A stretch of 64,000 nt of DNA from Alphaproteobacteria bacterium (GCA_965220745.1 CBDCQT010000013.1:704001-768000), one strand, 5' to 3'. Counted from the stretch's first letter, positions 1,521 to 41,012 are shown. A program made the numbers and translations. Notes: generated by a model from the letters alone, not told the origin.

Positions 1521-1816
1521 TTAGAAGGGGATACCGGAGCCGTCGTCCGTGTCGGACGGGGCGGCATCGGCGGTGGCCGTCGCCTCACCGTTGGCGGGCG
1601 GGGCGCCGTTGCCGTTGGTGCCGGCAGGCTTGTCCAGGAACTGGACGCGCCCGCCGGGGACCAGCAGGATCTCGGTGGAGAAGCGGTCCGAGTCCTCGCC
1701 GTCCTTGCGCCAGTTGCGGGTCTGGAGCTTGCCCGAGACGTAGACCAGGCGGCCCTTCTTCGCGTGCTTCTCGAGCATGTCGATCAGCCCGTCCTGGAAG
1801 GTGACGCAGCGGTGCC
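1521..1816 (-). pseudogene. ssb: 3' half of the interrupted single-stranded DNA-binding protein gene
   Basis: HRCVTFQDGLIDMLEKHAKKGRLVYVSGKLQTR...STEI...DDGSGIPF (acidic IPF tail). Joins in frame to 40846..41012. Confidence 0.92.
1810..1816. repeat. Left att core CGGTGCC
   Basis: Identical to 40846..40852; ssb similarity stops exactly here. Confidence 0.85.
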
Positions 1817-2043
1817 TTTCAGTAAGCAGAGGATTCTGCACAGGACACACGCACGCGGAGATACGATCAGGTACGATGAATTGGATGAAAACCGCAGAGT
1901 TCTGCCACTTTTCCGCCATAATGCCGTATCGCACTCCCGACAGGAGCACGCTCCGCTACGCGTCCATTCGACATCAGTCGCTTGCAAGGTGCTTACTGAG
2001 CGCCTACCATGCCCGACCGTCGAAAACTCGCTACACCCGACCC

Positions 2044-3225
2044 ATGCCCAGACGCGCCGAACGCAAACTCTCCAAGCGCACCATCGACGCCCTCGCCGTT
2101 GACGAGCGCGACGCCGTCTTCTGGGACCGCGACCTGCCCGGCTTCGGGGTCAGGGTCTATCCCTCCGGCCGCAAGGTCTACCTCGTGCAGACCAGGGGAC
2201 CGAAAGGCTCGAAGCGGGCAACGCTCGGCCGCCACGGAGACCTCACCCCGGACCAGGCTCGCAAGAAGGCTGCGGACGCCATCGACCGCATCAAGCGCGG
2301 CGAGGACCCGCTCCCGGCTGAGCCCAAGCCCGAGCCCACCGTGGCCGACCTGGCCGCGCACTACATGCGCGCCCATGTTGAGGTGAACTGCCAGCCGGCG
2401 ACCGTGAAGGACTACCGGCGCACCCTCGATCTGCACATCCTGCCCGCGCTCGGGGAGATGGCGCTCGCCTCGGTTGAGCGCAAGCATGCCGCCGACCTCC
2501 ACTACCGGCTTCGCGAGACGCCCACACGAGCGAACGCGGCGCTGAAGATCCTGTCCCACATGTTCGCCCTGGCTCCGGGCTGGGGCTTCGAGACGGGCGG
2601 CAGGAACCCCTGCCGCTTCGTGCGCGGCTATCGGGAGCGCAAGCGCGAGCGCTTCCTGACGCGCGACGAGTACCGCCGGCTGGGCGACGTCCTGGACGAG
2701 GCGGAGAAGGGCCGGATGTCGGTGTACACGGTGACCGCGATCCGCGTGCTGATGCTGACCGGGTGCCGGCGCAACGAGGTCCTTGAGCTGACGTGGGACG
2801 ACGTGGACCGGACCACGGGGGAGCTGCGGATTCGTCACGCCAAGACCGGCCCGCGCCGGGTGCCGCTGACGCCGCTCGTGGCGGAGATCCTTGACGCGCT
2901 CCCCCGCGTGGAGGGCAAGCCCTGGGTGTTTCCGGGCCGGGGCGCCGACGGCCGCCTGGTCAACATCAACGCGCCGTGGCAGGCCCTGTGCGCGCGCGCC
3001 GGGCTCAAGGACGTGCGCATCCATGACCTGCGTCATTCGTACGCCTCGCGCGCGCTGGCGCTGGGCGAGAGCCTGACCACCATCGGCGGTCTGCTCGGTC
3101 ACACGAAGGTGCGGACCACCGCGCGCTATGCGCACCTTGCGCGCGACACGGAGATCGCGGCTTCGGCGAAGATCGGGGCCAGCATCGGCGCCCATGTCCT
3201 GCAGGACGGGACCGAGCCTGCCTGA
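2044..3225 (+). CDS. Tyrosine integrase 1 with N-terminal arm-binding domain
   Basis: WDRDLPGFGVRV arm domain; catalytic TGCRRNE, AKTG, HDLRH, LLGH, TARY. Start placed at ATG 2044. Confidence 0.95.
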   Translation: MPRRAERKLSKRTIDALAVDERDAVFWDRDLPGFGVRVYPSGRKVYLVQTRGPKGSKRATLGRHGDLTPDQARKKAADAIDRIKRGEDPLPAEPKPEPTVADLAAHYMRAHVEVNCQPATVKDYRRTLDLHILPALGEMALASVERKHAADLHYRLRETPTRANAALKILSHMFALAPGWGFETGGRNPCRFVRGYRERKRERFLTRDEYRRLGDVLDEAEKGRMSVYTVTAIRVLMLTGCRRNEVLELTWDDVDRTTGELRIRHAKTGPRRVPLTPLVAEILDALPRVEGKPWVFPGRGADGRLVNINAPWQALCARAGLKDVRIHDLRHSYASRALALGESLTTIGGLLGHTKVRTTARYAHLARDTEIAASAKIGASIGAHVLQDGTEPA

Positions 3226-3252
3226 CGCGGCGTTCGGGGAAGAGGTGCAGCG

Positions 3253-4494
3253 ATGGCGAAGCTGAAGCGGCGGTCGATCTCGCGCCGCACGGTCGACGCG
3301 TTGTCCGTCGACAAGGACACCGTGTTCTGGGACCGGGAGCTGACGGGCTTCGGAGTCCGCGTCTATCCGTCGGGGGCGAAGTACTACATCGTGCAGGTGC
3401 GCGGCCCGGAGGGCTCGAAGCGTCTCACGGTGGGCCGGCACGGCGTTATCACGGCGGACCAGGCGCGGCAGCGGGCGGCGCTGATCATCGCCCGGATCAA
3501 GGCGGGGGAGGACCCGATCCCGGCACCATTGCCGCCATCCCCGGACGGCCCGACGGTCGGCGAGATCGCGGCACGCTACCTTGAGCAGCATGTGGCGGTA
3601 CGCTGCAGGGCGAGCACGGCGAGCATGTACCGGCGCAAGATCGAGCGCTACATCCTGCCGGCCTTCGGCGCGTTGCCGCTTTCTGCGGTGACGCGCGAGC
3701 AAGTCGCGGCGCTGCACTACGAGCTTCGCGACAGGCCGGTGCTGGCGAACCACGTGGTCGAGGTCCTGTCGCGCCTGTTCACCATGGCCGAGTACTGGGG
3801 CCTTGCGGCCGAGGGCGGCAACCCGTGCCGGTTCGTGAAGCCCCACCGGGTGCGTCGGCGTGAGCGCTTTCTGACGGAGGAGGAGTTCACCCGCCTGGGC
3901 CGGGTTCTCGCCGAGGCGGAGACGGACGGCCCGGCGATGCCGAGCACGGTTGCGGCGATCAGGCTCCTCATGCTTACCGGGTGCCGTCGCAGCGAGATCC
4001 TGGAGCTTCGGTGGGACGACGTGGACCTGGAGCGCCGCGAGCTGAGGTTGCGCCACACCAAGACGGGGCCGCGCACGGTGCCGCTGAACCCTGCTGCGGT
4101 GCAGGTGCTGGCGGGGCTGCGGCGGGTGCCGGACAATCCCTGGGTGCTGCCGGGCCGGCAGCCGGGCCGGCGCATCTCGAGCCTCAACGAGCCCTGGCTG
4201 CGGCTTCGCAAGCGTGCCGGGCTGAAGGACGTGCGGCTTCATGACCTGCGTCACAGCTTTGCGTCGCGCGCGCTGGCGCTTGGGGAATCGCTTCCGATGA
4301 TCGCGCGGCTGCTGGGCCACGCCGAGGTGCAGACGACGGCGCACTATGCCCACCTGAGCCGCGAGGCCCTGAATGCGGCAGCGGCCAGGATCGCGGACAG
4401 CATCGGCGAAGACATCCTGCGCGGCAGCGCCGGCCTTCGCGCCGCTGAGAGGCGGGGCCGAGACGGACGCGGAACGGCAGGGGCAAGAGGGTAG
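3253..4494 (+). CDS. Tyrosine integrase 2 (paralog of integrase 1)
   Basis: WDRELTGFGVRV, TGCRRSE, TKTG, HDLRH, LLGH, TAHY. Confidence 0.95.
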   Translation: MAKLKRRSISRRTVDALSVDKDTVFWDRELTGFGVRVYPSGAKYYIVQVRGPEGSKRLTVGRHGVITADQARQRAALIIARIKAGEDPIPAPLPPSPDGPTVGEIAARYLEQHVAVRCRASTASMYRRKIERYILPAFGALPLSAVTREQVAALHYELRDRPVLANHVVEVLSRLFTMAEYWGLAAEGGNPCRFVKPHRVRRRERFLTEEEFTRLGRVLAEAETDGPAMPSTVAAIRLLMLTGCRRSEILELRWDDVDLERRELRLRHTKTGPRTVPLNPAAVQVLAGLRRVPDNPWVLPGRQPGRRISSLNEPWLRLRKRAGLKDVRLHDLRHSFASRALALGESLPMIARLLGHAEVQTTAHYAHLSREALNAAAARIADSIGEDILRGSAGLRAAERRGRDGRGTAGARG

Positions 4495-4508
4495 GCCCGG
4501 CTGACCCG

Positions 4509-5180
4509 TCAGTTCGACCCGCAGCAGCGCTCGTAGATCCGCCCCGAGCCGCAGCGACAAGGCGCGCCGCCGACCGCCTCGAAGCCGCCGCGCGCGGCGG
4601 CCATCCCCAGTTCGCCCCCGAATCCTTTGGATAGCGCCCACGCAGCGAGCGCCCGAACGCAGTCCGGGATCAGATCGGACGCGGACCGGCGGATCTCTTC
4701 GACCGCGTCCTCCGCCAGGTCCGAGACACCCTCGCCGATGTCGTTCATCGTCTCGATCATGGCGAGCGAAGCCATGGCCTCCCCATCGCCGCTCGCCCCG
4801 ATCTGCAGCCATGCCTCCGGCCGCAGGCCCTTCGCCTGCCGGAAGCCCCAGACCCAGGGCTCCCACAGCAACTCGCCCGTGCCCGGATAGAAGCCGAGGA
4901 CCACCCTGTATCCCTGTGGATCGCTGGCGAGGTCTTCGGCCACCCGCCGGTAGTGGTCCATGACCGCAAAAGTCGCGTCCACCGACTCTTCGACATCCTC
5001 CGACGCCCTGTCGCCGCCCCATACCAGCGGCAGCCACTCCGCCGGCCCGACCCACTCGGGACAAAGCACGAGCCCGGCGACGAAGCCGTCCAGCTCGACC
5101 ACCGTCATCGCCTCCCGCTCTTCCCCCAGCCGGTCCAGCAGGTCCGTCAGGAACGCGATCTCTTCTCCCGTGTGTCTCAT
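4509..5180 (-). CDS. YecA/UPF0149-family protein with SEC-C motif
   Basis: ELDGFVAGLVLCPEWVGPAEWLPLVWG, EPWVWGF, C-terminal PCRCGSGRIYERCCG. Confidence 0.85.
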   Translation of the reverse strand: MRHTGEEIAFLTDLLDRLGEEREAMTVVELDGFVAGLVLCPEWVGPAEWLPLVWGGDRASEDVEESVDATFAVMDHYRRVAEDLASDPQGYRVVLGFYPGTGELLWEPWVWGFRQAKGLRPEAWLQIGASGDGEAMASLAMIETMNDIGEGVSDLAEDAVEEIRRSASDLIPDCVRALAAWALSKGFGGELGMAAARGGFEAVGGAPCRCGSGRIYERCCGSN

Positions 5181-5269
5181 GGCGTGGGCATATGATGTCT
5201 GCCGCGCGGCGAGGTCAACGGCGGAGGGCAAGCCGGAGCGCCGCCGCCCTGCCGGCCGGGTCGGCCTGC

Positions 5270-5490
5270 ACAGGGACTTGGATGCGCCCCAGGCTGCAAC
5301 GGCTGCGGTTGCACGATTTGAGGCACATCGCCGCCAGCCAGGCCGTCATGTCCGGCGAGAACCTGCCGTTGGTCGGCAAGCTGCTCGGACACTGCAGGCA
5401 CGAGACGATGGCGGGGTATGCCCATCTTGCGGACGCCCACCTTGTCGCCGCGGCTGAACAGGTTGGCTCGGTCATCGCAACGGCTATGGA
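5270..5490 (+). pseudogene. C-terminal remnant of a third tyrosine integrase
   Basis: LRLHDLRHIAASQAVMSGENLPLVGKLLGH...GYAHLAD with no N-terminal part. Confidence 0.8.
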
Positions 5491-5739
5491 GTCCGCCCAG
5501 CCAAGGGGTTGCCGGATCGATCCCGAAGTCCGACAATCGCCCCTGCGACAACCGGCAGAGACCCGATGTCGGGTCACCTGCTGAATAGAACAGCACCGAT
5601 CCGGCGACGGTTTGGCCACCATCGCCTGGCGCGAATAGGCAGGACTTCTTCGCATTCTCTGCGTGGTTGTCGCATGGCCCGGCACCAATCCCGTGCCGGG
5701 ACACGGACACGATGCTGATCAAGGGAGTGAGAAAGGCGC

Positions 5740-9142: not shown

Positions 9143-9391
9143 ATGCGCACCGTCTCCCTGATGACCGCCAACCAGGAGTTCTCGAAGCTCGTCCGCGAAG
9201 TCGAGCGCGGCGAGGGCTTCCTGATCACCCGCCGCGGGCGGCCCGTTGCCAAGCTCGTACCCCACAGCGCCGACAAGGACGCCGATCCCGAGTGGGCGGC
9301 GGCCCACCGGCGCATGATGGCGCGGCTGAAAGAGGGAGCGTCGCTCGGCGGCCTCAGGATCGAACGGGCCGCGCTTTATGACCGTGGTTAA
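9143..9391 (+). CDS. Phd/YefM-family antitoxin
   Basis: ANQEFSKLVREVERGEGFLITRRGRPVAKLVP; overlaps the toxin start. Confidence 0.9.
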   Translation: MRTVSLMTANQEFSKLVREVERGEGFLITRRGRPVAKLVPHSADKDADPEWAAAHRRMMARLKEGASLGGLRIERAALYDRG

Positions 9392-9839
9392 GGGGCGCTT
9401 CTCTCTGGATACCAACATTCTGGTCTATGCGGTCGACCGGGACGGCAGCGAGCGGCACTGGCTCTCCATGGAGCTGGTGGGGCGGGCGGCCCGGCGCGAC
9501 TGCGTCCTGACGGTTCAGGCGCTGGCCGAGTTCTTTCATGCCACCACCCGGAAGAACCTGCTCGAACCGTCCGAAGCCGGCCGGTTCGTGCGCGACTGGC
9601 TGGAGGTGTTCGAGGTCGCATCGGCCGACGGCGCGGCTCTCGCCGAGGCGATGGCAGCGGTGGACGAGCACCGGTTCTCGTTCTGGGACGCGATGCTCTG
9701 GGCGACCGCGAGGCAGGCGGGCTGCTCTGTCCTCGTGAGCGAAGACATGCAGCATGGACGCCGTCTAGGCGGCGTGGAGTTCGTCAACCCGTTCGCGCCC
9801 GACGGCCCCCCGGCGATGGCGACGATGTTCGATCTGTGA
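9378..9839 (+). CDS. vapC: PIN-domain toxin
   Basis: LDTNILVY, QALAEF, FSFWDAML, VSEDMQHG. Confidence 0.9.
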   Translation: MTVVKGRFSLDTNILVYAVDRDGSERHWLSMELVGRAARRDCVLTVQALAEFFHATTRKNLLEPSEAGRFVRDWLEVFEVASADGAALAEAMAAVDEHRFSFWDAMLWATARQAGCSVLVSEDMQHGRRLGGVEFVNPFAPDGPPAMATMFDL

Positions 9840-10167: not shown

Positions 10168-10617
10168 ATGAGTTTCGGACTGAACCGCGCAGAAGTCATT
10201 GGCCGCCTGGGTGCGGACGTCACCATCAACAGCCTCGCCTCCGGCGGGCGCGTGGCCAACATGAGCGTGGCGACCGATGAGTCGTATATCGACAGGGCCG
10301 CCGGCGGCGAGCGGATCGACAAGACAGAGTGGCATCGCGTCGTCAGCTTCCAGGACGGGCTGATCGACATGCTGGCGAAGCACGCGAAGAAGGGCCGGCT
10401 GGTGTACGTCGCGGGCAAGATGCAGACCAGGAAGTGGCGCAAGGAGGGCGAGGACAGCGACCGGTTCTCCACCGAGATCCTGTTGGTGCCCGGTTCGCGC
10501 GTCCAATTCCTGGACAAGCCTGCCGGCACCAACGGCAACGGCACGGCACCGGCCGACGGTGAGGCTCCGCCGGCCGGCGATGCCGCTTCGACAGGTGCCG
10601 ACGGCATTACATTCTAG
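10168..10617 (+). CDS. ssb: Single-stranded DNA-binding protein (intact copy in the inner element)
   Basis: LNRAEVIGRLGAD, VATDESY, TEWHRVV, GKMQTRKW, acidic tail; AAGGAG SD. Confidence 0.95.
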   Translation: MSFGLNRAEVIGRLGADVTINSLASGGRVANMSVATDESYIDRAAGGERIDKTEWHRVVSFQDGLIDMLAKHAKKGRLVYVAGKMQTRKWRKEGEDSDRFSTEILLVPGSRVQFLDKPAGTNGNGTAPADGEAPPAGDAASTGADGITF

Positions 10618-10656: not shown

Positions 10657-10695
10657 ATGGCCGGCCCCGCGTCCCTCCCGCGCGGGGTCGGCCAT
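10657..10695 (+). promoter_or_regulatory. Hairpin downstream of inner ssb (terminator or ssDNA signal)
   Basis: ATGGCCGGCCCCGCG/CGCGGGGTCGGCCAT stem followed by TTCTT; homolog at 1355..1391. Confidence 0.55.
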
Positions 10696-10902
10696 TTCTT
10701 ATGCAGCCCGATCCGAGCCCTTCACAGGACGGACGGCGGGGCTCGCGCTTCGCGCGCCGCCCCTCGTCCCGGCGCCGACAAGAGTAAGGAGACGCCGGGA
10801 CCGGGGCGCGTCCCATGCTGCGTCCAGCGAGGTCCCCATGCTCCCCATGACCGCCGACGGTCCCGGCTTCGCCGGCTCCCGCCCACGCCCGAGGAGTGCG
10901 CC

Positions 10903-15357: not shown

Positions 15358-15708
15358 ATGCCCGGGACGATCAGCAAGCACATCCGCATCGACGAGGAGC
15401 TCTGGAAACGCCTCGAAGTGGCCGCCGGGGAACAGGACATGACCGCCAACCGATTTCTCGCCGAGCTCGCTGAGCAGTGGCTGGAGACGAGGGAGTGGCC
15501 GCAATCCGAGGTGCAGGTCCGCGTCGCGCGCGCCTCTCTCTTCGCCGCACAGGCCATTGCGCTCGACATGATCGCCGCAGGCCGCAAGACCGAGGTCGAC
15601 CAAATCCTCGAGCATGTGGCCACTATCGTTCCCGGCGTCGCTCCCGAACCGTTGGCGGAGAGAGAGGCGGTCTCGCAGAAGCGTGATCCAGAACGGGAAG
15701 ACTCGTGA
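15358..15708 (+). CDS. Ribbon-helix-helix-like small DNA-binding protein
   Basis: ISKHIRIDEELWKRLEVAA...TANRFLAELAE fits the beta-alpha-alpha pattern. Confidence 0.6.
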   Translation: MPGTISKHIRIDEELWKRLEVAAGEQDMTANRFLAELAEQWLETREWPQSEVQVRVARASLFAAQAIALDMIAAGRKTEVDQILEHVATIVPGVAPEPLAEREAVSQKRDPEREDS

Positions 15709-18560: not shown

Positions 18561-18564
18561 CAGA

Positions 18565-30589: not shown

Positions 30590-30590
30590 G

Positions 30591-32588
30591 TCAGAACTTG
30601 ACCCAGGGCGGCTGCGTCTTCTTCTCTTCCGCCGGCGTGCCGACTGCCGCCTTCTCCGTGCCTTCGCCCGATGAGGACGCGGCTCCGTTGCCGTCAGGGT
30701 CAGCGCTGGCCGGCCCCTCCGCCGTCTCGGGCGGAGGCTCCGCATTGGGGGTCTCGTCGGATTGCCGCGCGTCCGGCGCCGGCACGGCGCCTTCGCCGGC
30801 CGGGTGTGTCAGTCGAGCCGGCGGTCCGCCGGCGCGGCTCGGATCGCGGCTGTCGTCGGGCCTCGGCACGAAGCGCACCGCGACGATGTCCCGCTTCCGG
30901 TACTTCAGCCTGATCCGTGCGACCGGCGAGGGGCCGGGGAACTTCAGGTAGCCCGACAGGTTCTCAAGACGCGATACCTCCGACGGAAGAACCAGGGGAC
31001 GCTCCTCGCGCCGCGTGCTCAGCGTCACGCCGCCGTGCGCGGTCTCGTAGCTCACGCCCTCCGAGAGGGTCTCGACCTCCACTTTGCCCAGGCTCCCCGC
31101 CGACCACTCGGACGTGTCCTTGTCGGGTGACGCCAACACGACCCGGGTGCCGCACAGCCCCGAGATCGTCTGCGCAAGGTCGCGCCCGTAGAGGTCCCGC
31201 AGGGCGGAGAACACCTGCACGCCGAGCACGAAGCAGCCTCCGAACTGCCGGCTCTCCGAAAGGCCGGGATCGAGGCTCGGGAGCTGGTGCAGGGTCGGCA
31301 GCTCGTCCAGGATCACCCAGATGCGGCGTGAGTCGGAGCGCGACAGCGAGAGCAGCGAGTTGACCGCGATCTCCAGCCAGGTGGAGATCAGCCCCCGCAG
31401 GCTCGCGTGCTGGTCGCCCCGCGACGTGAGAAACAGGCAGCCGCCGCTTCCCTCGCGTTCGATCCACTTCCTGATGGAGAAGGGGTCGCCCTCGTCGGGC
31501 AGCACCTCCATGGCGCCGATGTTGGCAGTCAGCATGGCGCGCACCGAGAGCGCGGTCTTCGGGTTGGCGAGATCGACGATGGACTGGGTCACGGTGCCCT
31601 CCATGGCCTCCGCGAGCTCGCTCAGATCGGTCTTGAGCAGACGGTCCACCAGCACCCGGTTACGTGTCTCTCCCCGCTGCCAGAGCACGGCCGCGCCGTG
31701 AGAGAAGAGCTGGCGTGCGGCGGTGATCCAGAAGGGGTCTGCGGCATCCTTCTGGCGGGGGATCAGCGCTGCCGCCATCGTGTCGAAGTCCAGCGCGGTG
31801 CGGGCCTCGAGGAAGGGCGACCAGCGCGGCGCGCGGTCGTCGAGGGGATTGAGCAGGACGTCCCGGCGCTTGTCGAAGAAGGTTTCGGTATAGCTCCCCA
31901 TCTTGTCGTAGATGACGCAACGCTCGCCCCGGCTGCGGATCTGCTCGACCAGGTCCGAGATGAGCACCGTCTTGCCCGAGCCCGTGGTGCCGGAGACGAT
32001 CGTGTGGTGCCTCTCGGCACCCTTCGGCCAGGGGATGCCGGCGATGCGGTAGGGCCGGGCCTCGGCGGGGCGGTCCCGCGGCCGCAACCGCCGCCACCAT
32101 GGCAGGGTGCGATGCCTCAGCTCCTTCGCGCTTGCCAGCTCGCCGCCCCGCAAGCGCTTGCCGCGCCCCAGTCTTTGCCCCAACAGGCGCAGCCCGAAGA
32201 GGACGGCGGCGGCCAGGCCCGCACAGCCGCCGCCACCGAGCAGAGCGGCATCGACGGCATCCCCCAGCAGGCGATCCCGATAGTCGAGGATCACGGGGTG
32301 TCTCGTGATGGTGTCGAGGGTCATGACCAGGACGGTTCCGTCCACGTCGCGGATCTTCTTGGTCTTGTCGGGCTTGAAATCGGCAACGAGCATGAACTCG
32401 CTCAGCGCGTAGACGCCGAAGACGTGCCAGTCGTGGTTGGTGTAGTCGCTGGTGGTCTTCCAGACAGCAGCGCCCAGGCCCGCGAGGATGACGCCGATGC
32501 CGATCCACCAGCCGAACCTGAACCACGTGCGAAAGCCCCGGGTAGCAACCCGGAGTCCGCGACCGGTGTCGCCGCCCACCCCGGTCAT
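30591..32588 (-). CDS. traD: Type IV coupling protein (TraD/TrwB-like)
   Basis: N-terminal TM helices, GTTGSGKT, IYDKMG, LNPLDDR, ILDELPTL, SRQFGG. Confidence 0.92.
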   Translation of the reverse strand: MTGVGGDTGRGLRVATRGFRTWFRFGWWIGIGVILAGLGAAVWKTTSDYTNHDWHVFGVYALSEFMLVADFKPDKTKKIRDVDGTVLVMTLDTITRHPVILDYRDRLLGDAVDAALLGGGGCAGLAAAVLFGLRLLGQRLGRGKRLRGGELASAKELRHRTLPWWRRLRPRDRPAEARPYRIAGIPWPKGAERHHTIVSGTTGSGKTVLISDLVEQIRSRGERCVIYDKMGSYTETFFDKRRDVLLNPLDDRAPRWSPFLEARTALDFDTMAAALIPRQKDAADPFWITAARQLFSHGAAVLWQRGETRNRVLVDRLLKTDLSELAEAMEGTVTQSIVDLANPKTALSVRAMLTANIGAMEVLPDEGDPFSIRKWIEREGSGGCLFLTSRGDQHASLRGLISTWLEIAVNSLLSLSRSDSRRIWVILDELPTLHQLPSLDPGLSESRQFGGCFVLGVQVFSALRDLYGRDLAQTISGLCGTRVVLASPDKDTSEWSAGSLGKVEVETLSEGVSYETAHGGVTLSTRREERPLVLPSEVSRLENLSGYLKFPGPSPVARIRLKYRKRDIVAVRFVPRPDDSRDPSRAGGPPARLTHPAGEGAVPAPDARQSDETPNAEPPPETAEGPASADPDGNGAASSSGEGTEKAAVGTPAEEKKTQPPWVKF

Positions 32589-33271
32589 TGCGAAGCCTCC
32601 ACGGCGGCAGCTGGCGGAGCGCCGGCAGCGCCCCTCCTGTCATGGACATTGCCGCCGGGAGAAGAGCCGGCCAGGTCTCTGAACCGCGCGAGCCAGCGCT
32701 CTGCGGCGGCTTTGGGCGCGAGCGGGCGAATGGTGCGGCGCAGCGGCGGGAAGGGGGTTCTGCCGCCTCCCACCCCGAGGTCGCGCCTTGCCAGGGTGTT
32801 CCCCTGTTCTGCCGCATCCGTCATGAGGGCGACGAAGCGGAGCACCTCGCTCCAGTCTTCCGGCGGCTCCGGGTCGAGGCCTGCGACTTCGCGCACCGCC
32901 CGGTCGACAGCAGCGCCCAGCGCCTTGGCGCGTGCCGCCGCCTTGGCCGATGCGGGGAGACCCGCCTCTTCGTCGCCGAGCCAGGCGGCACGCGCGGGAG
33001 TGAGAAGTGCGTGGAGCGCCAGGCAGCGGCGGTCTTCGCCGGCGATACCCTCCAGCGCCTCGATTTCCTTGGACATGGTGATCCCGTGCCGGGCGAGCGA
33101 GAGGAAGCGCTGCGTCCGTCCGCCCCAGCGGCAGGTGTCGGCGAGCACATTGGCGATCGCCTCGACATCCACGTCGATGTCCTCGCCCTGCTCCGGATCG
33201 CCGGGCCAACGAGATGGCGGCGACTGGTTCGATGCCGGGCGCCGGCGGCGCGTGACGGGGGAGTCTGTCAT
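32585..33271 (-). CDS. Degenerate HD-fold (YfbR-like phosphohydrolase) protein
   Basis: EAIANVLADTCRWGGRTQRFLSLARH resembles DIAHALS..CRF.GH...FYSVAQH; the HD dyad is missing (ALLTPA). Confidence 0.55.
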   Translation of the reverse strand: MTDSPVTRRRRPASNQSPPSRWPGDPEQGEDIDVDVEAIANVLADTCRWGGRTQRFLSLARHGITMSKEIEALEGIAGEDRRCLALHALLTPARAAWLGDEEAGLPASAKAAARAKALGAAVDRAVREVAGLDPEPPEDWSEVLRFVALMTDAAEQGNTLARRDLGVGGGRTPFPPLRRTIRPLAPKAAAERWLARFRDLAGSSPGGNVHDRRGAAGAPPAAAVEASQ

Positions 33272-33482: not shown

Positions 33483-33800
33483 TCATCGCCGCCCCCGGTC
33501 CGGCGGCAGACCGGCTTCGCCCCAGAACGCCGCCCGCAGAGCCTCCAAGAACTTGAATGTGAGCACCCCCAATGCGAGCAACAGCGTCCCCCCAAGCGTG
33601 AATATCAGCAGGAGGAGCAGGGTTTCGATCTCGCAGGTGCTCCAGGAGCAAAACTCCGCAGCAGTTCCCGACAGGGTCTCTTCATATTCCAACGGCAGAG
33701 GCGGGGACGTCTCCGCATATGCCGGGGCGGCCTGCGGCATGACCGGCGCAGGCTCCCCGGTCTGCCTGCCCGGCGGCAGACCGGCGCCGACCGTCATCAC
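33483..33800 (-). CDS. Small membrane protein
   Basis: One long hydrophobic segment; ATGA overlap with the upstream HTH gene. Confidence 0.5.
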   Translation of the reverse strand: MMTVGAGLPPGRQTGEPAPVMPQAAPAYAETSPPLPLEYEETLSGTAAEFCSWSTCEIETLLLLLIFTLGGTLLLALGVLTFKFLEALRAAFWGEAGLPPDRGRR

Positions 33801-34084
33801 CGTACCCTCCCGGGGCCGTCGGCGCCCTCATCCTCGTCGTCCTCGTCATTCTCCTCGTCCCCGTCGTTCGGGATCGGACCCTGCAGCCCGTCGTCGGAGG
33901 TTGAATGCCTGCGCCGCTTCGACGCCCACTTGATGACATCGGAAAGCAGATAGCGCACGACGCCTTCGAGGTCATAGTAAGGCGGACCCCCACCGCGGGA
34001 GCGGTAGCTCTCCAGCGTGCGCGGGCTCAGGCCCAGGTACTCCGCCACCCTCTTGGTGGATATGAACTGAGTGTTCTCGTCCAT
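33797..34084 (-). CDS. Excisionase/AlpA-like HTH protein
   Basis: ISTKRVAEYLGLSPRTLESYRSRGGGPPY...VRY; GGGAG SD. Confidence 0.85.
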   Translation of the reverse strand: MDENTQFISTKRVAEYLGLSPRTLESYRSRGGGPPYYDLEGVVRYLLSDVIKWASKRRRHSTSDDGLQGPIPNDGDEENDEDDEDEGADGPGRVR

Positions 34085-34149
34085 TTCTTTCTCCCATGTG
34101 TCCTGACGCATCGACCGCAACAGGCGTGACGCCGTCCCCGACCGAGTCC

Positions 34150-34578
34150 CGCACCTGGCTCCACCGCGCTCGCGGTGTTCGCCATCAAGGCACCCACCCT
34201 GTGGTCGGTGCCGGGCGTCGGGACCCGTCCCCGCCCCGGCCTGAGCACGAAGCCGGGACTGCTCATTGCCTTCTCGCCGAGCCTTTTCGCCTTTATGCCG
34301 GTCTCCTCGATGAGGGCCTCGGCCTCCCGCAGGAAGCAGGAGCCGACGGGCTCCAGGTTCATGGAGGCCGGCACCGTGTCGGCAGTGCCGAGGCGCACGT
34401 CCAAGCCCCGACCGAGGCGGCCAGAGCATGACGCGTCGCCGGGCACGGCGCTGCCGAGGGCGCAATACCAGAGCTTCTTGCTGTCGATGTTCGCCTCGAT
34501 GCTGTGCGCCTCGGTGCTGTCGATCGGCGCCTGCCAGCTGCCTGGGGTAATGCGGTCGATGTGGAGTGACGTGCTCAT
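34150..34578 (-). pseudogene. Degenerate HTH-repeat protein, paralog of 34913..35200
   Basis: ALG...DAS..GRLGRGLDVRLGTAD...LEPVG..FLREAEALIEETG shared with the neighbouring copy. Confidence 0.45.
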
Positions 34579-34912
34579 GGAGAGAACATATAGGCAACAC
34601 TTCTATCTATGCAATTGTATGGAATCGGAGATTGGATGTAGCATTTGGCATAAAGCGACGACATAAGGTGTCAGGAGTACTCAGGAGTACCATCTAGTAC
34701 GACGATCACTTTTTTGTGATGCCAGCACGGCTCCCTTCCGGGAGCGAGATCGCGCTTGCCATCGACCGCAAGCGCTACAGGGTCGGCGGTCAGGGGGAAT
34801 TCGGAAAGCCGAGGGTGCCTGCCGCCGGAGACATCGGGATGCCCGCGGAACTCCTCAGATGGCGAGACCGAACACCCGCGCCACGTGCCGAGCTTCAGGG
34901 ACCTTCCCTTCT

Positions 34913-35200
34913 TCAGCCTGAGCGCGAAGCTGGGATCGCCAGCACTTCCTCGCCGGGCACATGCGGCTCGATGCCGGTCTCCTGGAGGAAGGCATCGAGC
35001 TTCCGCAGGAAGCGTGGGCCGATCGGCTCCAGCCTCACGTAGGTCAGCTCCTTGTCGGCGGTGCGAAGACGCACCTCCGAGCCCTGGCCGAGCCGGCCGA
35101 GAAAGGACGCATCGCCAAGCGCGGCCAAGCCGAAACCGGCACGCGAGAGCTTCTCGCGATAGCCCGCTGGTCCCGAGCGATGATCACGCCACATGCTGCC
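34913..35200 (-). pseudogene. Degenerate HTH-repeat protein, paralog of 34150..34578
   Basis: ALGDASFLGRLGQGSEVRLRTAD...LEPIGPRFLRKLDAFLQETG. Confidence 0.45.
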
Positions 35201-35365
35201 GTCATTGAACCAACATGAAACGGCCTCTTTCCCCGCACCGCTGATTGATCTCTCCGGTCGGTACGGCAACCAAGTCTGCGTACGACTTTACTGTTGACCC
35301 ATTTTGCGCGATGGAGGCTCATGCCGATCACTTGAGAATCGGATCAGCTGCTCCATGCTTGATGC

Positions 35366-38300
35366 ATGAACATCGGTGCCGCAGTCTCGGGCAGCCTCTT
35401 TGCCAACGATTTCCTTTGTGAATCCGTTGGCCAGACGCCTGACTGGCAGGATCTGAACGCAACCTCATTCGACGCATTCGAGGCGGCGTTGCGGGCCATC
35501 GTTGACAACTTCCCCTTCGCCGGCGCGCCCAACGAGAGCCAGACAGAGGACGACCTGATCTGGCCCGTGCTCGGGGTCCTTGGCTGGTCGGCCAGCCTGC
35601 GGCAGCAAAACCTCAGCGCACACGGCATGACGGACGTGCCGGATGGCTTGCTGTTCGCGGACGAGGCGACGAAGGGCCAAGCCAACCGCTTCGCCCAGGA
35701 GTGGAGGCGCTACGAGCTTGGCCTTGCGGTGGTGGAGTCCAAACGCTGGCAGCGCCCGCTCGACCGCCGCTCCGGGAGAGCCGGCGAGGAGACGGCGCCA
35801 TCGACCCAGATGCTGCGCTATCTGCGGCGCGTCGACGATCTCACCACCGGCAGGCTGCGCTGGGGCATTCTCACCAACGGCGCACGCTGGCGGCTCTACT
35901 ACCAGGGCGCGCGCTCGGTGTCTGAGCAGTTCTTCGAGGTCGATCTCCCGGCGATCCTCGACCTCCCCGGCCACAACGACGGCCTCTTCGCCCTCGACGA
36001 CGCGGAGCGGCGCCACTGCCTCAAGCTGTTCGCGCTGGTCTTCCGGCGCGAGGCCTTCCTGCCCGGTGCGGTGGACGAGCGCACCTTCCATCAGCGCGCC
36101 ATCGAGGAAGGCCGCTTCTACGAGGAGCGTGTTGCCGCCAGCCTCTCCGATCTGGTCTTCGGCCAGGTCTTCCCCGAGCTCGCCCGTGCGATCGCCGCCG
36201 CCGCGCCGGACTCGCCCCTGCCCGAGGTACGCGAGGCCACGCTGATCCTGCTCTATCGGCTGCTGTTCATCCTCTATGCCGAGGACCGCGACCTGCTGCC
36301 GGTCCGGGACGAGCGCTACGACGACTACGCGCTGCGCGACCGCGTTCGCGACGATATCGGTCGTCGCAAGGACCAAGGAGACACCTTCGCCGAAACCCTA
36401 ACGACCTATTGGTCGGCGGTGGACGATCTTTGCCGTGCCATCGACCAAGGCGAGGTCTCCATCGGCCTGCCGCCCTACAACGGCGGCCTGTTCGACCGCG
36501 CACGTGTGCCGCTGCTCGACCGCATCCGGCTCGGCGACCGGATGATGGCGGATGTCATCGACGCGCTTTCCTTCGAGCAGAGCGAGGCAGGGCGCCGCTA
36601 CATCAACTATCGCGATCTCGGGGTTCGCCAGCTCGGCTCGATCTACGAACGCCTTCTGGAACACGAGCTCGTCCGAGAGGGCGACGCGGTGGCCGTGCGC
36701 CCCAACATCTTCGCCCGCAAGGGCTCGGGCAGCTACTACACGCCCGACGACCTGGTGGGACTGATCGTCGAGGAGACCATCGGCCCCCTGGTGCAGGCGC
36801 GCATGGACGGCTTCATGGAAGAAGCTGGGCGCGTGCCCGAAAATGGACACGCCCGCGAGCGGGCCGTGGCGCGCCTGGCGGAACACGACCCCGCCGAGGC
36901 GATTCTCGCCGTCAAGGTCTGCGATCCCGCCATGGGATCAGGCCACTTCCTCGTCACGCTGGTGGATTATCTCGCCGACCAGGTGGTCGGCGCCATGGCC
37001 GAGGCAGAAGCGGCGGTCGAGGGCTACGTCTCGCCGCTCGCCAGCCGCATCCAGGCCATCCGCGACCGGATCGTGGCGAACGCGGAAGAGCGCAACTGGG
37101 CCTTGGACAAGGACCGGCTCGACGACCGTCACATCGTCCGACGCATGGTGCTGAAGCGCTGCGTCTACGGGGTCGACAAGAACCCGATGGCGGTGGAGCT
37201 GGCCAAAGTCGCGCTCTGGCTGCACACCTTCACCGTCGGCGCGCCGCTCAGCTTCCTGGATCACCACCTCCGCTGCGGCGACAGCCTGTTCGGCGCCTGG
37301 GCGCGGAGCGGAATCGACAAGGCGACCGACTATGGCAGCCCCCTGCTCTTGCACGGCTCAATCGCCGAAGCGGAACGGTCGGCGCGGTCGATGCAGACGA
37401 TCGAGGACCTGACCGACGCCGAGATCGCCGAGGCGCATCGCTCCGCTGAGACCTTCGCCGAGGTGGAGGCGGCAACGGCGCCCCTCGATGCCGTCCTTCG
37501 CCTCGTGCATGCCCTCGATTGGCTGGAGGTGAAGGACCGGGACGGCAAGACGGCGCTACAATCCTTCTTCGGCGGCCTGCTCGGTGATCCTATCGACATC
37601 GCGCTGGGCCAGGTAGAGGTATCGACGGAGCGAGTGGAGAGCGCGTCGTTCATCGGACTGTTGGGTGAGGCCCGGCGCATCGTCGCGGAGGAGCGCTTTC
37701 TCAACTGGCAAGCGGCGTTCCCCGGCGTTTGGTTGAACTGGCAGAGCGCGGGCCTCGAAGGCGGCTTCGACGCCGTGATCGGCAATCCGCCCTGGGACCG
37801 GATGAAGCTGCAACAGGTGGAGTGGTTCGCGACGCGGCGGCCCGAGATCGCGCTTGCGCCGCGCGCGGCCGACCGCAAGCGCATGATTGCGGCGCTGGAG
37901 CGCGACGGCGATCCGCTGGCGAGGGACTACGCGCTGGCAAGCGAGCGAGCGGCGATGGCCGTCCGTACGGCGCGGCGATCCGGCGATTATCCGCTGCTGT
38001 CGAGCGGGGACGTGAACCTCTATTCACTCTTCGTCGAGCGCGCGATGACACTCGTGAAGCCCGACGGCATGATGGGGCTCCTCACGCCCTCCGGCATTGC
38101 GTCGGACAAGACGGCCGCCCGCTTCTTCAAGGGCGTGGCGACCGAAGGGCGGCTGAAAGCGCTCTATGACTTCGAGAACCGGCGCACGCGTTATGACGCG
38201 CCGCCTTTCTTCCCCGACGTGGACAGCCGCTTCAAGTTCTGTGCCTTCGTGGCCAGCCCGTCCCCCCTCGCCGACACCGCGCGGTGCGCGTTCTTCCTGC

Positions 38301-39445
38301 AGGATATCGCAGAACTTGAAGACAGCGAGCGTTGCTTCCCGTTGACAGCGGAAGCCTTCGCGCGCGTCAACCCCAACACCGGCACGGCGCCGATCTTCCG
38401 CACCCGCCGCGATGCGGAGCTGACCACGGCGATATACGAGCGCCTGCCGGTCTTGGTCGACCGCTCGGCGGGCGAGGAGGTGAAAGCGTGGCCGGTGAGG
38501 CACGTCCGCATGTTTGACACCGACCTTGATTCGCATTGGTTCCGCTCGCGGGCGGAGCTTGAGGAGCGGGAGAGCGCGTACCCCATCAGCGGCAACCGTT
38601 TCGGCAGTCCGACCGGCGAGTGGGTGCCGCTCTACGAGGGCAAGATGGTGCAGGCGTTCGATCACCGAGCTGCAAGTGTCACCGTTAATCCGCGAAACCT
38701 GCATCGACCAGCCCAACCCGCCCCAACGACGTTAGGGCAGCACCAAGATCCGGGTTGGGTTCCCGATCCACAGTTTTGGGTCCCAGCCTCGCAGTGCGAA
38801 TATCCTGCTGGAGCGAAATGGGTTCTTGGATTCAAGCGAATTACCTCCACCACTAATTCTCGCTCGTTAATTTCATCGCTATTGCCGGCGGTCGGCTTTA
38901 ATGACCTTCTTCCCATTCTACTTCCCGATACGTTGGATCGAGGAGAGTGGCTACTTGTGGCCAACTTTAATTCTGCGCCTTTAGACTACGTGACGCGCCA
39001 AAAGGTTCAGGCCAATCATCTGAATCTCTTTATTGTTGAACAACTCCCCGTCGTCCCGCCCGAGCGCTACGAGTGCGTGCGCTTCGGGCGGAAGACGGCA
39101 GCGGAAATTGTCCTCGAGGCGGTACTTGAGCTGACTTATACGGCCCACGACATGGTGCCCTTCGCCCGCGACATGGGACATGTGGACGACGCCGGCGACG
39201 TGCTGCCGCCCTTCGTATGGGACGAAGAGCGGCGCCTCTTCCTGCGCGCGAAGCTGGACGCCGTGTTCTTCCACCTCTACGGCGTCACCGACCGCGACGA
39301 CGTGCGCTACATTTATTCCACTTTCCCCATAGTCGAGCGCGAACAGACCGTCGCCTACGGCACCTACCGCTCCCGCGACCTCTGCCTCGCCTGGATGAAC
39401 GCCCTCGCGGCTGGTGATCCAGACGCGGAAGTCACCCTGCAATAG
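35366..39445 (+). CDS. Type IIG (Eco57I-like) fused restriction endonuclease-methyltransferase
   Basis: PDGLLF...VESK nuclease motif, GILTNG..WRLY, GSYYTP, DPAMGSGHF (motif I), IGNPPW (motif IV), C-terminal specificity region. Confidence 0.92.
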   Translation: MNIGAAVSGSLFANDFLCESVGQTPDWQDLNATSFDAFEAALRAIVDNFPFAGAPNESQTEDDLIWPVLGVLGWSASLRQQNLSAHGMTDVPDGLLFADEATKGQANRFAQEWRRYELGLAVVESKRWQRPLDRRSGRAGEETAPSTQMLRYLRRVDDLTTGRLRWGILTNGARWRLYYQGARSVSEQFFEVDLPAILDLPGHNDGLFALDDAERRHCLKLFALVFRREAFLPGAVDERTFHQRAIEEGRFYEERVAASLSDLVFGQVFPELARAIAAAAPDSPLPEVREATLILLYRLLFILYAEDRDLLPVRDERYDDYALRDRVRDDIGRRKDQGDTFAETLTTYWSAVDDLCRAIDQGEVSIGLPPYNGGLFDRARVPLLDRIRLGDRMMADVIDALSFEQSEAGRRYINYRDLGVRQLGSIYERLLEHELVREGDAVAVRPNIFARKGSGSYYTPDDLVGLIVEETIGPLVQARMDGFMEEAGRVPENGHARERAVARLAEHDPAEAILAVKVCDPAMGSGHFLVTLVDYLADQVVGAMAEAEAAVEGYVSPLASRIQAIRDRIVANAEERNWALDKDRLDDRHIVRRMVLKRCVYGVDKNPMAVELAKVALWLHTFTVGAPLSFLDHHLRCGDSLFGAWARSGIDKATDYGSPLLLHGSIAEAERSARSMQTIEDLTDAEIAEAHRSAETFAEVEAATAPLDAVLRLVHALDWLEVKDRDGKTALQSFFGGLLGDPIDIALGQVEVSTERVESASFIGLLGEARRIVAEERFLNWQAAFPGVWLNWQSAGLEGGFDAVIGNPPWDRMKLQQVEWFATRRPEIALAPRAADRKRMIAALERDGDPLARDYALASERAAMAVRTARRSGDYPLLSSGDVNLYSLFVERAMTLVKPDGMMGLLTPSGIASDKTAARFFKGVATEGRLKALYDFENRRTRYDAPPFFPDVDSRFKFCAFVASPSPLADTARCAFFLQDIAELEDSERCFPLTAEAFARVNPNTGTAPIFRTRRDAELTTAIYERLPVLVDRSAGEEVKAWPVRHVRMFDTDLDSHWFRSRAELEERESAYPISGNRFGSPTGEWVPLYEGKMVQAFDHRAASVTVNPRNLHRPAQPAPTTLGQHQDPGWVPDPQFWVPASQCEYPAGAKWVLGFKRITSTTNSRSLISSLLPAVGFNDLLPILLPDTLDRGEWLLVANFNSAPLDYVTRQKVQANHLNLFIVEQLPVVPPERYECVRFGRKTAAEIVLEAVLELTYTAHDMVPFARDMGHVDDAGDVLPPFVWDEERRLFLRAKLDAVFFHLYGVTDRDDVRYIYSTFPIVEREQTVAYGTYRSRDLCLAWMNALAAGDPDAEVTLQ

Positions 39446-39668
39446 GAATACAGTCAGCCCAAGGCACCCAATGCCATGAATTCAAGACTCGTCCTCCGCC
39501 CCTCGGGCGCCAGGGACCGACTCCGTCGGGGCACCCAGCGATCGGTCGCTCGGTGGCGGCGCAACGAACATGGATAAGGACAAGTGATTCCGATTGTCCC
39601 GCTTCGGACTCTGCTATGGATTACGCGATGAATCCGACATGCGGGAATCGGCTTGAGGAGAATGAGCC

Positions 39669-40004
39669 ATGACAGGGACCGACGATGCGCTCTTGCAGCG
39701 TATGGTAGCCACAATCGTGAAGGAGGTGGACCCCGAACAGGTGATACTCTTCGGCTCCCGTGCGCGCGGCAACGCAGCTACGGACTCCGACGTCGATCTG
39801 GTGGTAATCGAAACCGCACCGTTCGGCGAAGAGAGGGACCGCCGCACGGAAGCAGTGCGCCTTTGGAGAGCGCTGGCGGGCTTTCGCGTTCCCAAGGACA
39901 TTCTGGTCTATAGCCGCGACGAGGCCGAATATTGGCGGCACTCCCTCAACCATGTGCTCGCGCGCGCTTTGCGCGAGGGCAGGGTCCTCTATGAGCGACC
40001 ATAG
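39669..40004 (+). CDS. Minimal nucleotidyltransferase (MNT) antitoxin
   Basis: LFGSRARG...DSDVDLVV. Confidence 0.9.
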   Translation: MTGTDDALLQRMVATIVKEVDPEQVILFGSRARGNAATDSDVDLVVIETAPFGEERDRRTEAVRLWRALAGFRVPKDILVYSRDEAEYWRHSLNHVLARALREGRVLYERP

Positions 40005-40413
40005 GCAAGCGCGTATCCTCGTAGGAGCGGCGGAAAAGGATATCACCGCCCTGCGCGGCATGAGCGATGCCGACATCTTCGCTGACGAGATTTTCGGCTT
40101 TCATGCACAACAGGCGGTGGAAAAGCTGTTCAAGGCGTGGCTCGCTCTGTTGGGTCGAACCTACCCGCCAATCCACGACCTATCCGAACTTCTCTCGATG
40201 TTGATCGAATGCCAGTCAGACGCCGCGCGATTCGAGCCCTTGATCGAATACACTCCCTACGCCGTCCAGTTCCGCTACGGAATCGGCGACACCGGCAGCG
40301 TGCCACTCGATCGGGACGCCGCCCTTCTGGGAACAGAAGCGTTGCTTGCCGAAGTTCAGTGCAAACTGCCAGACGAAGACGACCCGACTTCGACGGTTGA
40401 TTCGCGTAAGTAG
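39991..40413 (+). CDS. HEPN-domain protein (MNT-HEPN pair)
   Basis: GFHAQQAVEKLFKAWL, HDLSELL, YAVQFRY; start at ATG 39991. Confidence 0.88.
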   Translation: MSDHRQARILVGAAEKDITALRGMSDADIFADEIFGFHAQQAVEKLFKAWLALLGRTYPPIHDLSELLSMLIECQSDAARFEPLIEYTPYAVQFRYGIGDTGSVPLDRDAALLGTEALLAEVQCKLPDEDDPTSTVDSRK

Positions 40414-40688
40414 ATGATATTCCCCAGCTCTCATTTCTGGCACTGCATCCGGCATTTTTTCGAGCCTAGGCCGGGCTTCGTTGGCATTCAGGCGAGCTGG
40501 TACGGGGTGATCGTCAGGGGCAGACCCATGGTGGCGTAGATCTGTTCCGCCGCCCGTGTCGGCTTCGAGGGAATGACGTAGCGGTTGCCCGATTGCCGGC
40601 AGCGCAGCACGGAGCATTGGCGGTGGATGAAGGCGGAGCGGATGACCTCCGGGGACATCCGCTGCTTCTGGATGGCGACGCGGTACGT
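40383..40688 (-). mobile_element. IS remnant, probably IS1634-family: transposase C-terminus plus right end
   Basis: 40688..40488 reads TYRVAIQKQRMSPEVIRSAFIHRQCSVLRCRQSGNRYVIPSKPTRAAEQIYATMGL..stop; end-like CCCGACTTCGACGGTTGA at 40383. Family call is from recall. Confidence 0.55.
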
Positions 40689-40845
40689 CGGGTGGCAAAC
40701 AACAGAATCCCGTAGGTTTGTTGCGAAGTCCGCTCGCAGGCCTACGCGAGAGCTACATCGAATCCTCTTGCATTTTGCTTACGGAGAAATTCATTGTTCC
40801 AAATTATCTCGCTATAGAGACAATTTAGTCAAATTCAATCTCTAT

Positions 40846-40852
40846 CGGTGCC
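40846..40852. repeat. Right att core CGGTGCC
   Basis: Identical to 1810..1816; AT-rich palindromic DNA lies just inside. Confidence 0.85.
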
Positions 40853-41012
40853 ACTGGGTCTGGTCCTTCCGCTCGCCGGTCTGGCGATCGATATAGCTCT
40901 CGTCGGTCGCGATGCTCATGTTGGCAACGCGCCCGCCGGAAGCCAGGTGGTTGACAGTGACGTCGGCGCCGAGGCGGCCGATCAACTGCGCCATGTTGAG
41001 TCCGAAAGCCAT
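40846..41012 (-). pseudogene. ssb: 5' half of the interrupted ssb
   Basis: MAFGLNMAQLIGRLGADVTVNHLASGGRVANMSIATDESYIDRQTGERKDQTQWHR, then an immediate stop inside the insert; AGGAG SD. Confidence 0.92.

Follow-up and report, generated by a model that had tools for sequence, protein, structure and literature searches.

The stretch of DNA analysed here, referred to as the window, comprises 64,000 nucleotides of an Alphaproteobacteria bacterium (GCA_965220745.1) and corresponds to G000:C13:704001-768000, G000 being the genome under study; window coordinates are counted from its first letter. It contains an ssb gene of the minus strand which is interrupted by an insert of 39,029 bp (1817-40845), and this insert carries two tyrosine recombinase genes at one end, together with a relaxase and a type IV coupling protein (T4CP). 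The C-terminal part of the interrupted gene (1521-1816, minus strand) runs from the W-H-R core to the stop codon (...HRCVTFQDGL...DDGSGIPF*), and the N-terminal part (40846-41012, minus strand) reads MAFGL...DQTQWHR and then meets a TAG provided by the insert.

The interrupted ssb gene

The two ends of the insert are marked by copies of the 7-bp core CGGTGCC, the first of which (attL, 1810-1816) corresponds to the H-R codons on the minus strand, and the second (attR) occupies positions 40846-40852. Both copies are intact and identical, the identity between insert and target amounts to 7 bp at each end, and the core overlaps the Trp-His-Arg codons of the ssb. The initial annotation had described two ssb halves lying 39,036 bp apart on the same strand, sharing this heptamer and giving an uninterrupted 456-bp open reading frame (ORF) when joined. 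The start-to-start distance of the core copies agrees with this value, and the joining of the halves by coordinates, using a script, yielded 456 nt, or 151 codons, with no internal stops and with W-H-R at residues 54-56. Given that the two strands of the genome together contain 3,040 copies of CGGTGCC, the heptamer alone carries no meaning.

When the genus was searched at the DNA level with the left flank as the query, a natural empty site was recovered (L062, on contig C37 of genome G027), which reads GAAGGTGACGCAG-CGGTGCC-ACTGGGTCTGG within an intact ssb of 151 aa. Positions 1-1816 of the window align with positions 597-2393 of this locus at 90% identity, and positions 40847-42352 align with 2388-3893 at 97.9%, the two alignments sharing just the core, and the ssb of the empty site is identical to the virtual excision product at 443 of the 456 nt. 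The existence of this natural empty site makes the split-ssb observation a solid one, and the match rules out misassembly and homologous recombination as the cause of the split. An assembly artefact, or homologous recombination between ssb paralogues, might be suspected in a genome that has six ssb-like loci and is distributed over 13 contigs, as repeats of this kind can mislead assemblers. However, both junctions are found within one contig of 1.08 Mb and are seen again in two further assemblies, the empty site is collinear with the flanks, just 7 bp are shared at each end, and the ssb that the insert itself carries is situated 8 kb into the element, on the strand opposite to that of the host ssb, which leaves this explanation a negligible probability.

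The symmetry of the target, on the other hand, was only partly upheld. Inverted arms had been described around the core, and GACGCAG does match the reverse complement of CTGGGTC at six of seven positions, but the match falls to four of seven at the occupied site of G027 and in most other ssb alleles, for which reason the dyad is regarded as weak evidence. At the left junction, an open frame of 142 aa (1521-1949, minus strand) starts from a GTG in the left arm of the element and reads into the C-terminal half of the ssb; a fusion product is possible.

The integrase pair and the attachment arms

The recombinases Int1 (2044-3225) and Int2 (3253-4494), both on the plus strand, are paralogues with 57% identity, and each of them combines an Arm-DNA-bind_3 and a Phage_integrase domain (PF00589); both are full length, and both exceed the Pfam cut-off for the latter family. 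The left arm which precedes them (1817-2043, plus strand) starts with TTTCAGTAAG and has blocks conserved with the relatives in genomes G035 and G032. Its terminal TCAGTAAGCA (1819-1828) has an inverted copy at 1990-1999, and AGATACGAT and AGGTACGAT are repeated at 1859-1877. The right arm (40697-40845, plus strand) ends in ...CAATCTCTAT and has a GCTTAC motif near 40780, as well as a 16-nt repeat, CAAATTATCTCGCTAT (40800-40815) and CAAATTCAATCTCTAT (40830-40845), whose copies are 30 bp apart and end at the core. The core-proximal half-sites of attP differ both from each other and from the ssb flanks.

A quick IQ-TREE phylogeny was built from 68 integrases of loci L009-L036 and of all of G000, selected as ORFs of at least 300 aa whose blastp alignment to Int1 covered at least 340 aa at E <= 1e-60. 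In this tree, all of the 26 first-position integrases fell in a single clade, alongside 12 unpaired ones (SH-aLRT 95), and all 26 second-position integrases fell outside that clade, with matching subclades on both sides. The R, K, H, R, H and Y columns, which we take to have the catalytic roles (R-K-H-R-H/W-Y), were kept in 26 of 26 integrases of each position, except for one H to Q replacement. From these sequences, the pair appears to be ancient and co-evolving, with catalytic residues in both members, which points to a putative two-subunit recombinase with one paralogue per half-site. In the mechanism proposed here, Int1 and Int2 would act jointly, possibly one per half-site like XerC/XerD, and attP (...CAATCTCTAT-CGGTGCC-TTTCAGTAAG...) would recombine with the ssb core, a reaction whose reversal would restore the ssb exactly.

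Transfer genes of the insert and the conjugation pore of its host

The relaxase of the insert is a MOBF-like, TrwC-type relaxase-helicase (27551-30745, minus strand; TrwC match of 266 bits), and its coupling protein is of the TrwB type (30591-32588, minus strand; TrwB_AAD_bind match of 440 bits), both being intact. Directly beside them lies the gene of a 228-aa protein (32585-33271, minus strand), a candidate relaxosome accessory with 68% identity to the product of the gene directly upstream of the host trwB, and further on lies an excisionase-like HTH_17 gene (33797-34600, minus strand) which is homologous to the gene that comes first in the pore operon of the host ICE and is apparently frameshifted, its N-terminal part being found in the ORF 34027-34578. 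The operon of the minus strand is composed of HTH_17, a 105-aa ORF, the 228-aa ORF, TrwB and TrwC. No pore family was found in any insert ORF scanned, and the pore proteins of the host match nothing within the insert. The gene content claimed initially, i.e., integrases at one end, a relaxase and a T4CP without genes for mating-pair formation (MPF), is therefore confirmed, and an integration module with defined att sites plus a relaxase, without a complete mating-pair-formation apparatus, is what characterizes an integrative and mobilizable element (IME).

The interrupted ssb, as had also been proposed, belongs to another mobile element, an integrative and conjugative element (ICE) with a type IVB/MPF-I pore cluster, relaxase, T4CP and integrase (C13:653918-698778). 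Its pore block (C13:659863-692333, plus strand) is located to the left of the window, directly upstream of the host TrwB (C13:693385-695370) and TrwC (C13:695698-698748) pair, and a single integrase (C13:653918-655117) is found on the left side, an S24 repressor being also present. The identification of the host as an ICE is based on this pore cluster and integrase, in addition to a backbone of S24 repressor, TrwB, TrwC, YAcAr, toprim, ssb and Sno/ParB genes. The right end of this ICE was not located, and its two sides have no direct repeat of at least 13 bp in common.

Three pore proteins of the host match their families above the cut-offs (T4SS_TraI, E = 2.4e-54; DotI/IcmL, E = 1.4e-39; DotH/IcmK, E = 6.7e-44), and DotA/TraY (TIGR04346) reaches 210 bits against a cut-off of 100, the TraO/DotG and TraQ matches being weak. 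The block also encodes an HTH_17 protein, a secretin-like lipoprotein, two T2SSE ATPases and a TcpQ/prepilin peptidase set, and the nearest named Atlas clusters of its 1045-aa ATPase are conjugative ATPases (0.96-0.97). The VirB4 profile PF03135 found no match in any of the 21 genomes of the genus, nor did PF03743, PF12846 or PF11130 find one in G000. That no pore exists anywhere in the genome, as the blanks of the VirB4 profile would have it, is ruled out by the type IVB cluster in the ORFs to the left of trwB. Judged by its profile matches, the apparatus is IncI/Dot-Icm-like, of type IVB (MPF-I), with a putative VirB4-class ATPase that the usual profiles miss; MPF-I is reportedly among the MPF classes distinguished by Guglielmini et al. 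in 2014. Given that the VirB4 profile is blank throughout the genus, even though at least G000 and G035 contain type IVB clusters, standard ICE and IME calls would be wrong in this genus.

When searched with tblastn, the host pore proteins were found in G000 at the C13 cluster, plus a partial set on contig C1, which places the insert within the ICE whose pore cluster is the sole complete one found in the genome. The 14 TrwC matches of G000 stand against this one complete cluster.

Occupied sites in related genomes

Integrases resembling Int1 are abundant, with 53 matches in G000 and a match at E <= 1e-100 in 21 of the 44 genomes of the family. Close relatives (E <= 1e-165) are restricted to four of the 49 genomes of the order, namely G000, G027 (98% identity), G035 (94%) and G032 (79%). 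Among the 36 loci examined, the C-terminal half of an ssb stands beside Int1 only at the loci of G000, G027 and G035, and in these three the junction is identical, with GCGGTGCC followed directly by TTTCAGTAAG.

The right junction of the G027 element, which lies on another contig, consists of ...CTCTAT followed by CGGTGCCACT... beside the N-terminal half of an ssb. This element is 96-97% identical to the insert over 1605-5236 and 34534-41100 and has the same pore-less right end, and its flanks are ~75-80% identical to those of the window and represent a different, more distant backbone; the same genome also carries a backbone of the G000 type, which is unoccupied. The copies in G000, G027 and G035, surrounded by different ssb alleles and backbones, arose from separate integrations at a single nucleotide position.

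The G035 relative (Int1 94%, Int2 96%) has the order ssb, toprim, YAcAr, TrwC and TrwB, followed by a complete pore cluster, HTH_17 and an S24 repressor, and in terms of gene content it appears to be a full ICE. Just past the gene of the S24 repressor, where the right end is expected, a group II intron-like reverse transcriptase is encoded (G035:C3 ~371260-373200; L077). The backbone in which this ICE has inserted is a remnant that lacks the toprim gene, and no pore, TrwB or TrwC genes were found in the 27 kb to its left.

Paralogues of 55-62% identity use other integration sites. The flanks of the integrase pairs on contigs C3, C8, C9 and C10 have no tblastx match in the host ICE, and the matches of the C12 flank are integrase-to-integrase only, which indicates that nesting is not a trait of the whole family. 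The three paralogous pairs at G000:C8:10772, C9:27372 and C10:809118 share one insertion point, which directly precedes the start codon of a gene for a small lipoprotein-like product (MKKTKLTRS...), and this site resembles a different conserved attachment site.

Outside these genomes, plasmids contain relatives of 45% identity or less only, and among metagenome contigs there is one 92% relative on a contig of 3.6 kb, whose 127 bp of upstream sequence are too short for a junction. A further relative, on a contig of 33,195 bp from a metagenome-assembled genome (MAG), has the same size as, and 98% identity to, contig C82 of G027, and was discarded as not independent. The ssb type that serves as the target is itself widespread, given that 19 of the 21 genomes of the genus together yield more than 250 DNA matches to it.

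The putative replacement ssb and other invaders of ssb genes

The insert carries an ssb of its own (10168-10617, plus strand; 149 aa), which is 76-77% identical to the broken host gene and in which the core reads CGATGCC instead of CGGTGCC, a synonymous change of the His codon. The corresponding core is also CGATGCC in the G035 element and is CTGTGCC in the G027 element, that is, a core other than CGGTGCC is found in the own ssb of all three Int1-type elements, compared with five of 17 other distinct ssb sites (12 of 17 have CGGTGCC). In the proposed mechanism, the element's own ssb would take over the function of the destroyed one, and the synonymous change would keep it from becoming a target itself. 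These recoded cores are a hint of what may be a form of target immunity. The chromosomal ssb (C5:193952-194410), which has 39-46% identity with the element-borne genes, has a CGGTGCC-ACT core and is unoccupied; an insertion into it would presumably be lethal.

Element-borne ssb genes are also invaded by other means. A second type of element, present in G035 (C1:311435-346966) and on contig C7 of G032, has a single integrase with 31% identity to Int1 and splits the ssb 12 codons downstream of W-H-R, at M-L-E-K-H (loci L051/L052/L080/L081, G035:C1:311208-347211, and L056, G032:C7). The 35.5-kb copy in G035 contains TrwC, YAcAr and toprim genes, as well as an ssb of its own, in which the corresponding residues are L-T-K-N. 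In G027, an insertion at the GCGGT of the W-H-R site (L048, C30, ~2085; L049, C24, ~5925) has TGT...ACA ends, terminal inverted repeats of ~30 bp which match at 23 of 30 positions when compared by eye, and a 5-bp duplication, by which features it looks like a Tn7- or Tn402-like transposon.

Interpretation of the insert

Considered together, the insert at 1817-40845 is very probably an IME which has been inserted site-specifically in the ssb of a resident type IVB ICE, and for which excision, transfer through the pore of the helper and replacement of the ssb are proposed. After excision, the relaxase and T4CP of the element would dock on the type IVB pore of the ICE for transfer. The suggestion that the insert borrows the pore of its host is consistent with the host ICE being the holder of the sole complete pore cluster found in the genome.

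Several observations weigh against this reading. The 79% relative in G032 has a junction outside ssb (TTCGCATGCC followed by TTTCAGTAAG), with no ssb in the 10 kb upstream, and the specificity for ssb would therefore be limited to a narrow clade; the expectation that homologues of the integrases would be flanked by split ssb genes held for the 98% and 94% relatives, at the identical ssb junction, but not for this one. For the G035 element, no right junction was recovered, the N-terminal half of the ssb being absent from the 120 kb examined, and that end is interrupted by a group II intron. All three occupied sites belong to a single genus and to related elements, which makes the independent events few in number. 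The integrase tree is the product of a quick search only, and the core mismatch that suggests immunity was seen in three related elements and compared with a convenience sample of 17. With respect to transfer, no oriT was located in the insert, and the 1045-aa ATPase of the pore block matches neither PF03135, PF12846 or PF11130 nor PDB sequences, and it matches TIGR02746 below the cut-off (E = 2e-4), TIGR00929 matching in G000 only the two trwB genes, through the P-loop.

To these points must be added the signs of decay or accretion in the insert itself, i.e., the C-terminal remnant of a third integrase (5192-5584, plus strand), a 319-bp IS (insertion sequence) end fragment at 40383-40696, 150 bp from attR, whose parent IS has nine identical copies in G032, and the apparent frameshift of HTH_17, given which the element may have lost its mobility. 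It can be argued from these same features that the insert is a fixed and decaying relic, which entered by site-specific recombination and no longer excises or transfers, and the host ICE itself has an IS adjoining its integrase and a RIT-like insertion. However, both integrases are full length with all catalytic residues, and the relaxase, the T4CP and the two core copies are intact, these copies being identical to each other. The same IS fragment is present at the right end of the G027 element, which is 99% identical to that of the insert and lies at a different ssb allele, from which it follows that this fragment did not block the move of that element. A relic is, in this light, unlikely.

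The origin of the insert bears on what its position means. In the host, the pore cluster is bracketed by two genes that find their matches in the HTH_17 and 228-aa genes of the insert, the two elements have a common backbone order with core proteins that are 64-85% identical, and what is missing from the insert, in comparison with pore-bearing ICE backbones, is ~32 kb of pilus and pore genes, between HTH_17 and the gene upstream of trwB. Given these bracket-gene matches and the complete relative in G035, the insert is best read as a pore-deleted derivative of an ICE, in which the HTH_17 gene would mark the site of the deletion.

This descent provides an alternative to the initial annotation, which had pictured a satellite that homes to the ssb of its helper. 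Int1 and Int2 may instead be the attachment system of one ICE lineage which uses element-borne ssb genes as attB, in which case the insert and its host would be nested siblings, the loss of the pore would be recent, and the position of the insert would reflect the distribution of ssb genes and not an adaptation to piracy. The G035 relative (94%) has a pore cluster of its own and is a complete ICE, its target backbone is a remnant in which the 27 kb to the left contain no genes for a pore, TrwB or TrwC, insert and host share their backbone order and their core proteins, and the target is an extremely abundant type of ssb. Against this stand the location of a pore-less element in the very ICE that has the only complete pore cluster found in its genome, and the G027 copy (96-97%), which is also pore-less at its right end and lies in a similar backbone. 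The nesting of siblings is accordingly a serious possibility, albeit one with clearly less than an even chance, and both readings have the same recombination mechanism and differ only in what was selected. Of the satellite picture, the IME in the ssb of an ICE and the same junction in relatives were retained, but homing to a helper proved too narrow a description, as the same integrase pair serves the complete ICE of G035 and a pore-less target backbone in that genome.

A broader picture may be drawn from the preferred reading of an IME in the ssb of a type IVB ICE, although it is speculative and somewhat unlikely in its entirety. A guild of ICEs and pore-less derivatives would nest in one another's ssb genes, at least two unrelated integrase lineages having converged on the most conserved stretch of the ssb, one as an obligate, co-evolving pair at W-H-R and the other as a single integrase at M-L-E-K-H. 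Each invader would bring an ssb recoded at its own target, which would render it immune to self- or super-insertion and the resident dependent on the copy of the invader, a form of "gene-replacement homing" that would be carried out by a heteromeric integrase.

Comparison with known systems

Systems with two recombinases include XerC/XerD, TnpA/TnpB of Tn554 and the tandem recombinase modules of BIM and RIT elements. The insert resembles them in that a paralogous pair, catalytically complete as judged by its residues, is kept together and appears to co-diverge, with asymmetric half-sites, and co-occurrence and co-divergence of the XerC/D kind were found for 26 tandem pairs in the quick tree. 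Int1 and Int2 differ from those recombinases in being arm-binding integrases of the P4/lambda style which belong to large conjugative elements. One question raised by the conservation of tandem, intact integrases is whether they form a XerC/D-like heteromer for the integration of large elements.

In the plasmid R388, a MOBF TrwC/TrwB set is coupled to a VirB-like (MPF-T) pore. The insert has the same association of a TrwC relaxase containing an AAA_30 helicase domain with a TrwB_AAD_bind coupling protein, side by side, whereas the only pore available here is of type IVB, which raises the question of how a MOBF relaxase and T4CP pair docks on a type IVB pore. The pore itself recalls IncI1 (R64) and Dot/Icm, given that the host ICE has TraI/DotC-, TraM/DotI-, TraN/DotH-, TraO/DotG-, TraQ- and TraY/DotA-like proteins and a DotB-like ATPase. 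The pore cluster of the host also includes a type IV pilus set, as does R64. Unlike the IncI1 system, that of the host is integrated in the chromosome and not borne by a plasmid, is paired with a MOBF-like TrwC, and has a putative VirB4-class ATPase which appears too divergent for the Pfam and NCBIfam cut-offs.

The mobilizable genomic islands (MGIs) of SXT and the island SGI1 depend on the pore of a helper, and, as described by Guedon et al. (PMC5704250), they are inserted in chromosomal genes and most of them have neither a relaxase nor a T4CP of their own. The insert is similar to them in its proposed dependence on a helper's pore and differs by its target in an ICE gene and by its own relaxase and T4CP. 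A closer parallel is offered by the streptococcal IMEs which sit in conserved genes (traG, snf2, maff2) of ICEs of the Tn5252 superfamily, mostly by means of serine integrases (Coluzzi et al. 2017, PMC5357655; Guedon et al. 2017, PMC5704250). Common to both cases is a mobilizable element that encodes its own recombinase and inserts site-specifically into a conserved gene of a potential helper, a conjugative element, thereby disrupting this gene. The streptococcal cases, as these texts present them, involve Firmicutes, mostly serine integrases and transfer genes as targets, whereas the element described here has a pair of tyrosine integrases, a lineage of alphaproteobacterial MAGs, an ssb target with a replacement ssb, and its own relaxase and T4CP. 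Here too, the targeted gene is a conserved one that belongs to a conjugative element, and neither a serine integrase nor a host of the Tn5252 superfamily was found.

The main texts of PMC5357655 and PMC5704250 contain no occurrence of "ssb", and a literature search over main texts found no paper on an ssb attachment site, in agreement with the initial annotation, which knew of no description of this target, and none that describes this integrase pair. The known theme of IMEs within ICEs is in this way extended to the Alphaproteobacteria, to a type IVB ICE, to an element-borne ssb as the target and to paired tyrosine integrases. A further question that arises is whether the recoded replacement gene gives rise to target immunity and to a dependence of the helper on its parasite.

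Accessory genes and neighbouring features

The remaining genes of the insert are mostly located between the integrases and the transfer operon. Next to Int2 lies the gene of a UPF0149 family protein (4509-5231, minus strand), a PADLOC candidate (PDC-S12), and further inside are a Phd/YefM antitoxin (9143-9391) and PIN toxin (9378-9839) pair, both on the plus strand. The element's own ssb is followed, on the same strand, by a primase-like DUF7146-Toprim protein (10657-11883), a YAcAr/SLOG protein (12751-13749) with 85% identity to the copy of the host ICE, and an RHH protein (15358-15708) with a REase-ARP nuclease-like protein (15957-16790). The cargo region (16797-26924) comprises PPK2, TetR, an AtzD/TrzD fragment, UDG-like, GMC oxidoreductase, NIPSNAP and a Bmp-type ABC transporter. 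The AtzD/TrzD fragment is a 45-aa gene remnant (18188-18325) that matches the middle of this ring-opening amidohydrolase (E = 1e-12). Beyond the transfer operon, the plus strand encodes a type IIG/MmeI-like restriction-modification enzyme (35366-39445) and a pair formed by an MNT nucleotidyltransferase (39669-40004) and a HEPN protein (39952-40413). The IS end fragment that follows (40383-40696), which is also found in the G027 copy of the element, contains an ORF of 56 aa without a family match.

On the two sides of the insert, the window contains parts of the host ICE. Downstream of the broken ssb lies its DUF7146-Toprim gene (3-830, minus strand), which runs past the edge of the window, and on the other side the backbone (41340-62699, minus strand) encodes Macro+AlkB-like, DprA-like, PIN/MazE, Strawberry-notch helicase, DUF6573, HATPase, ParB, PAPS-reductase-like, DUF2201 and DUF3150 proteins. 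The window ends within a RIT-like (recombinase-in-trio) element of 3,692 bp with tandem tyrosine recombinases (62700-64000, minus strand), which is inserted in the host ICE and continues to C13:770391. A XerC-like gene at 62788-63789, considered as the integrase of the host ICE, was ruled out as it is part of this element, of which there are three copies with 99.97-100% identity (C13:766700, C13:843466 and C5:9102). The copy on C5 occupies the equivalent place in a backbone of ~80% identity, which suggests a preferred site for the RIT-like element.

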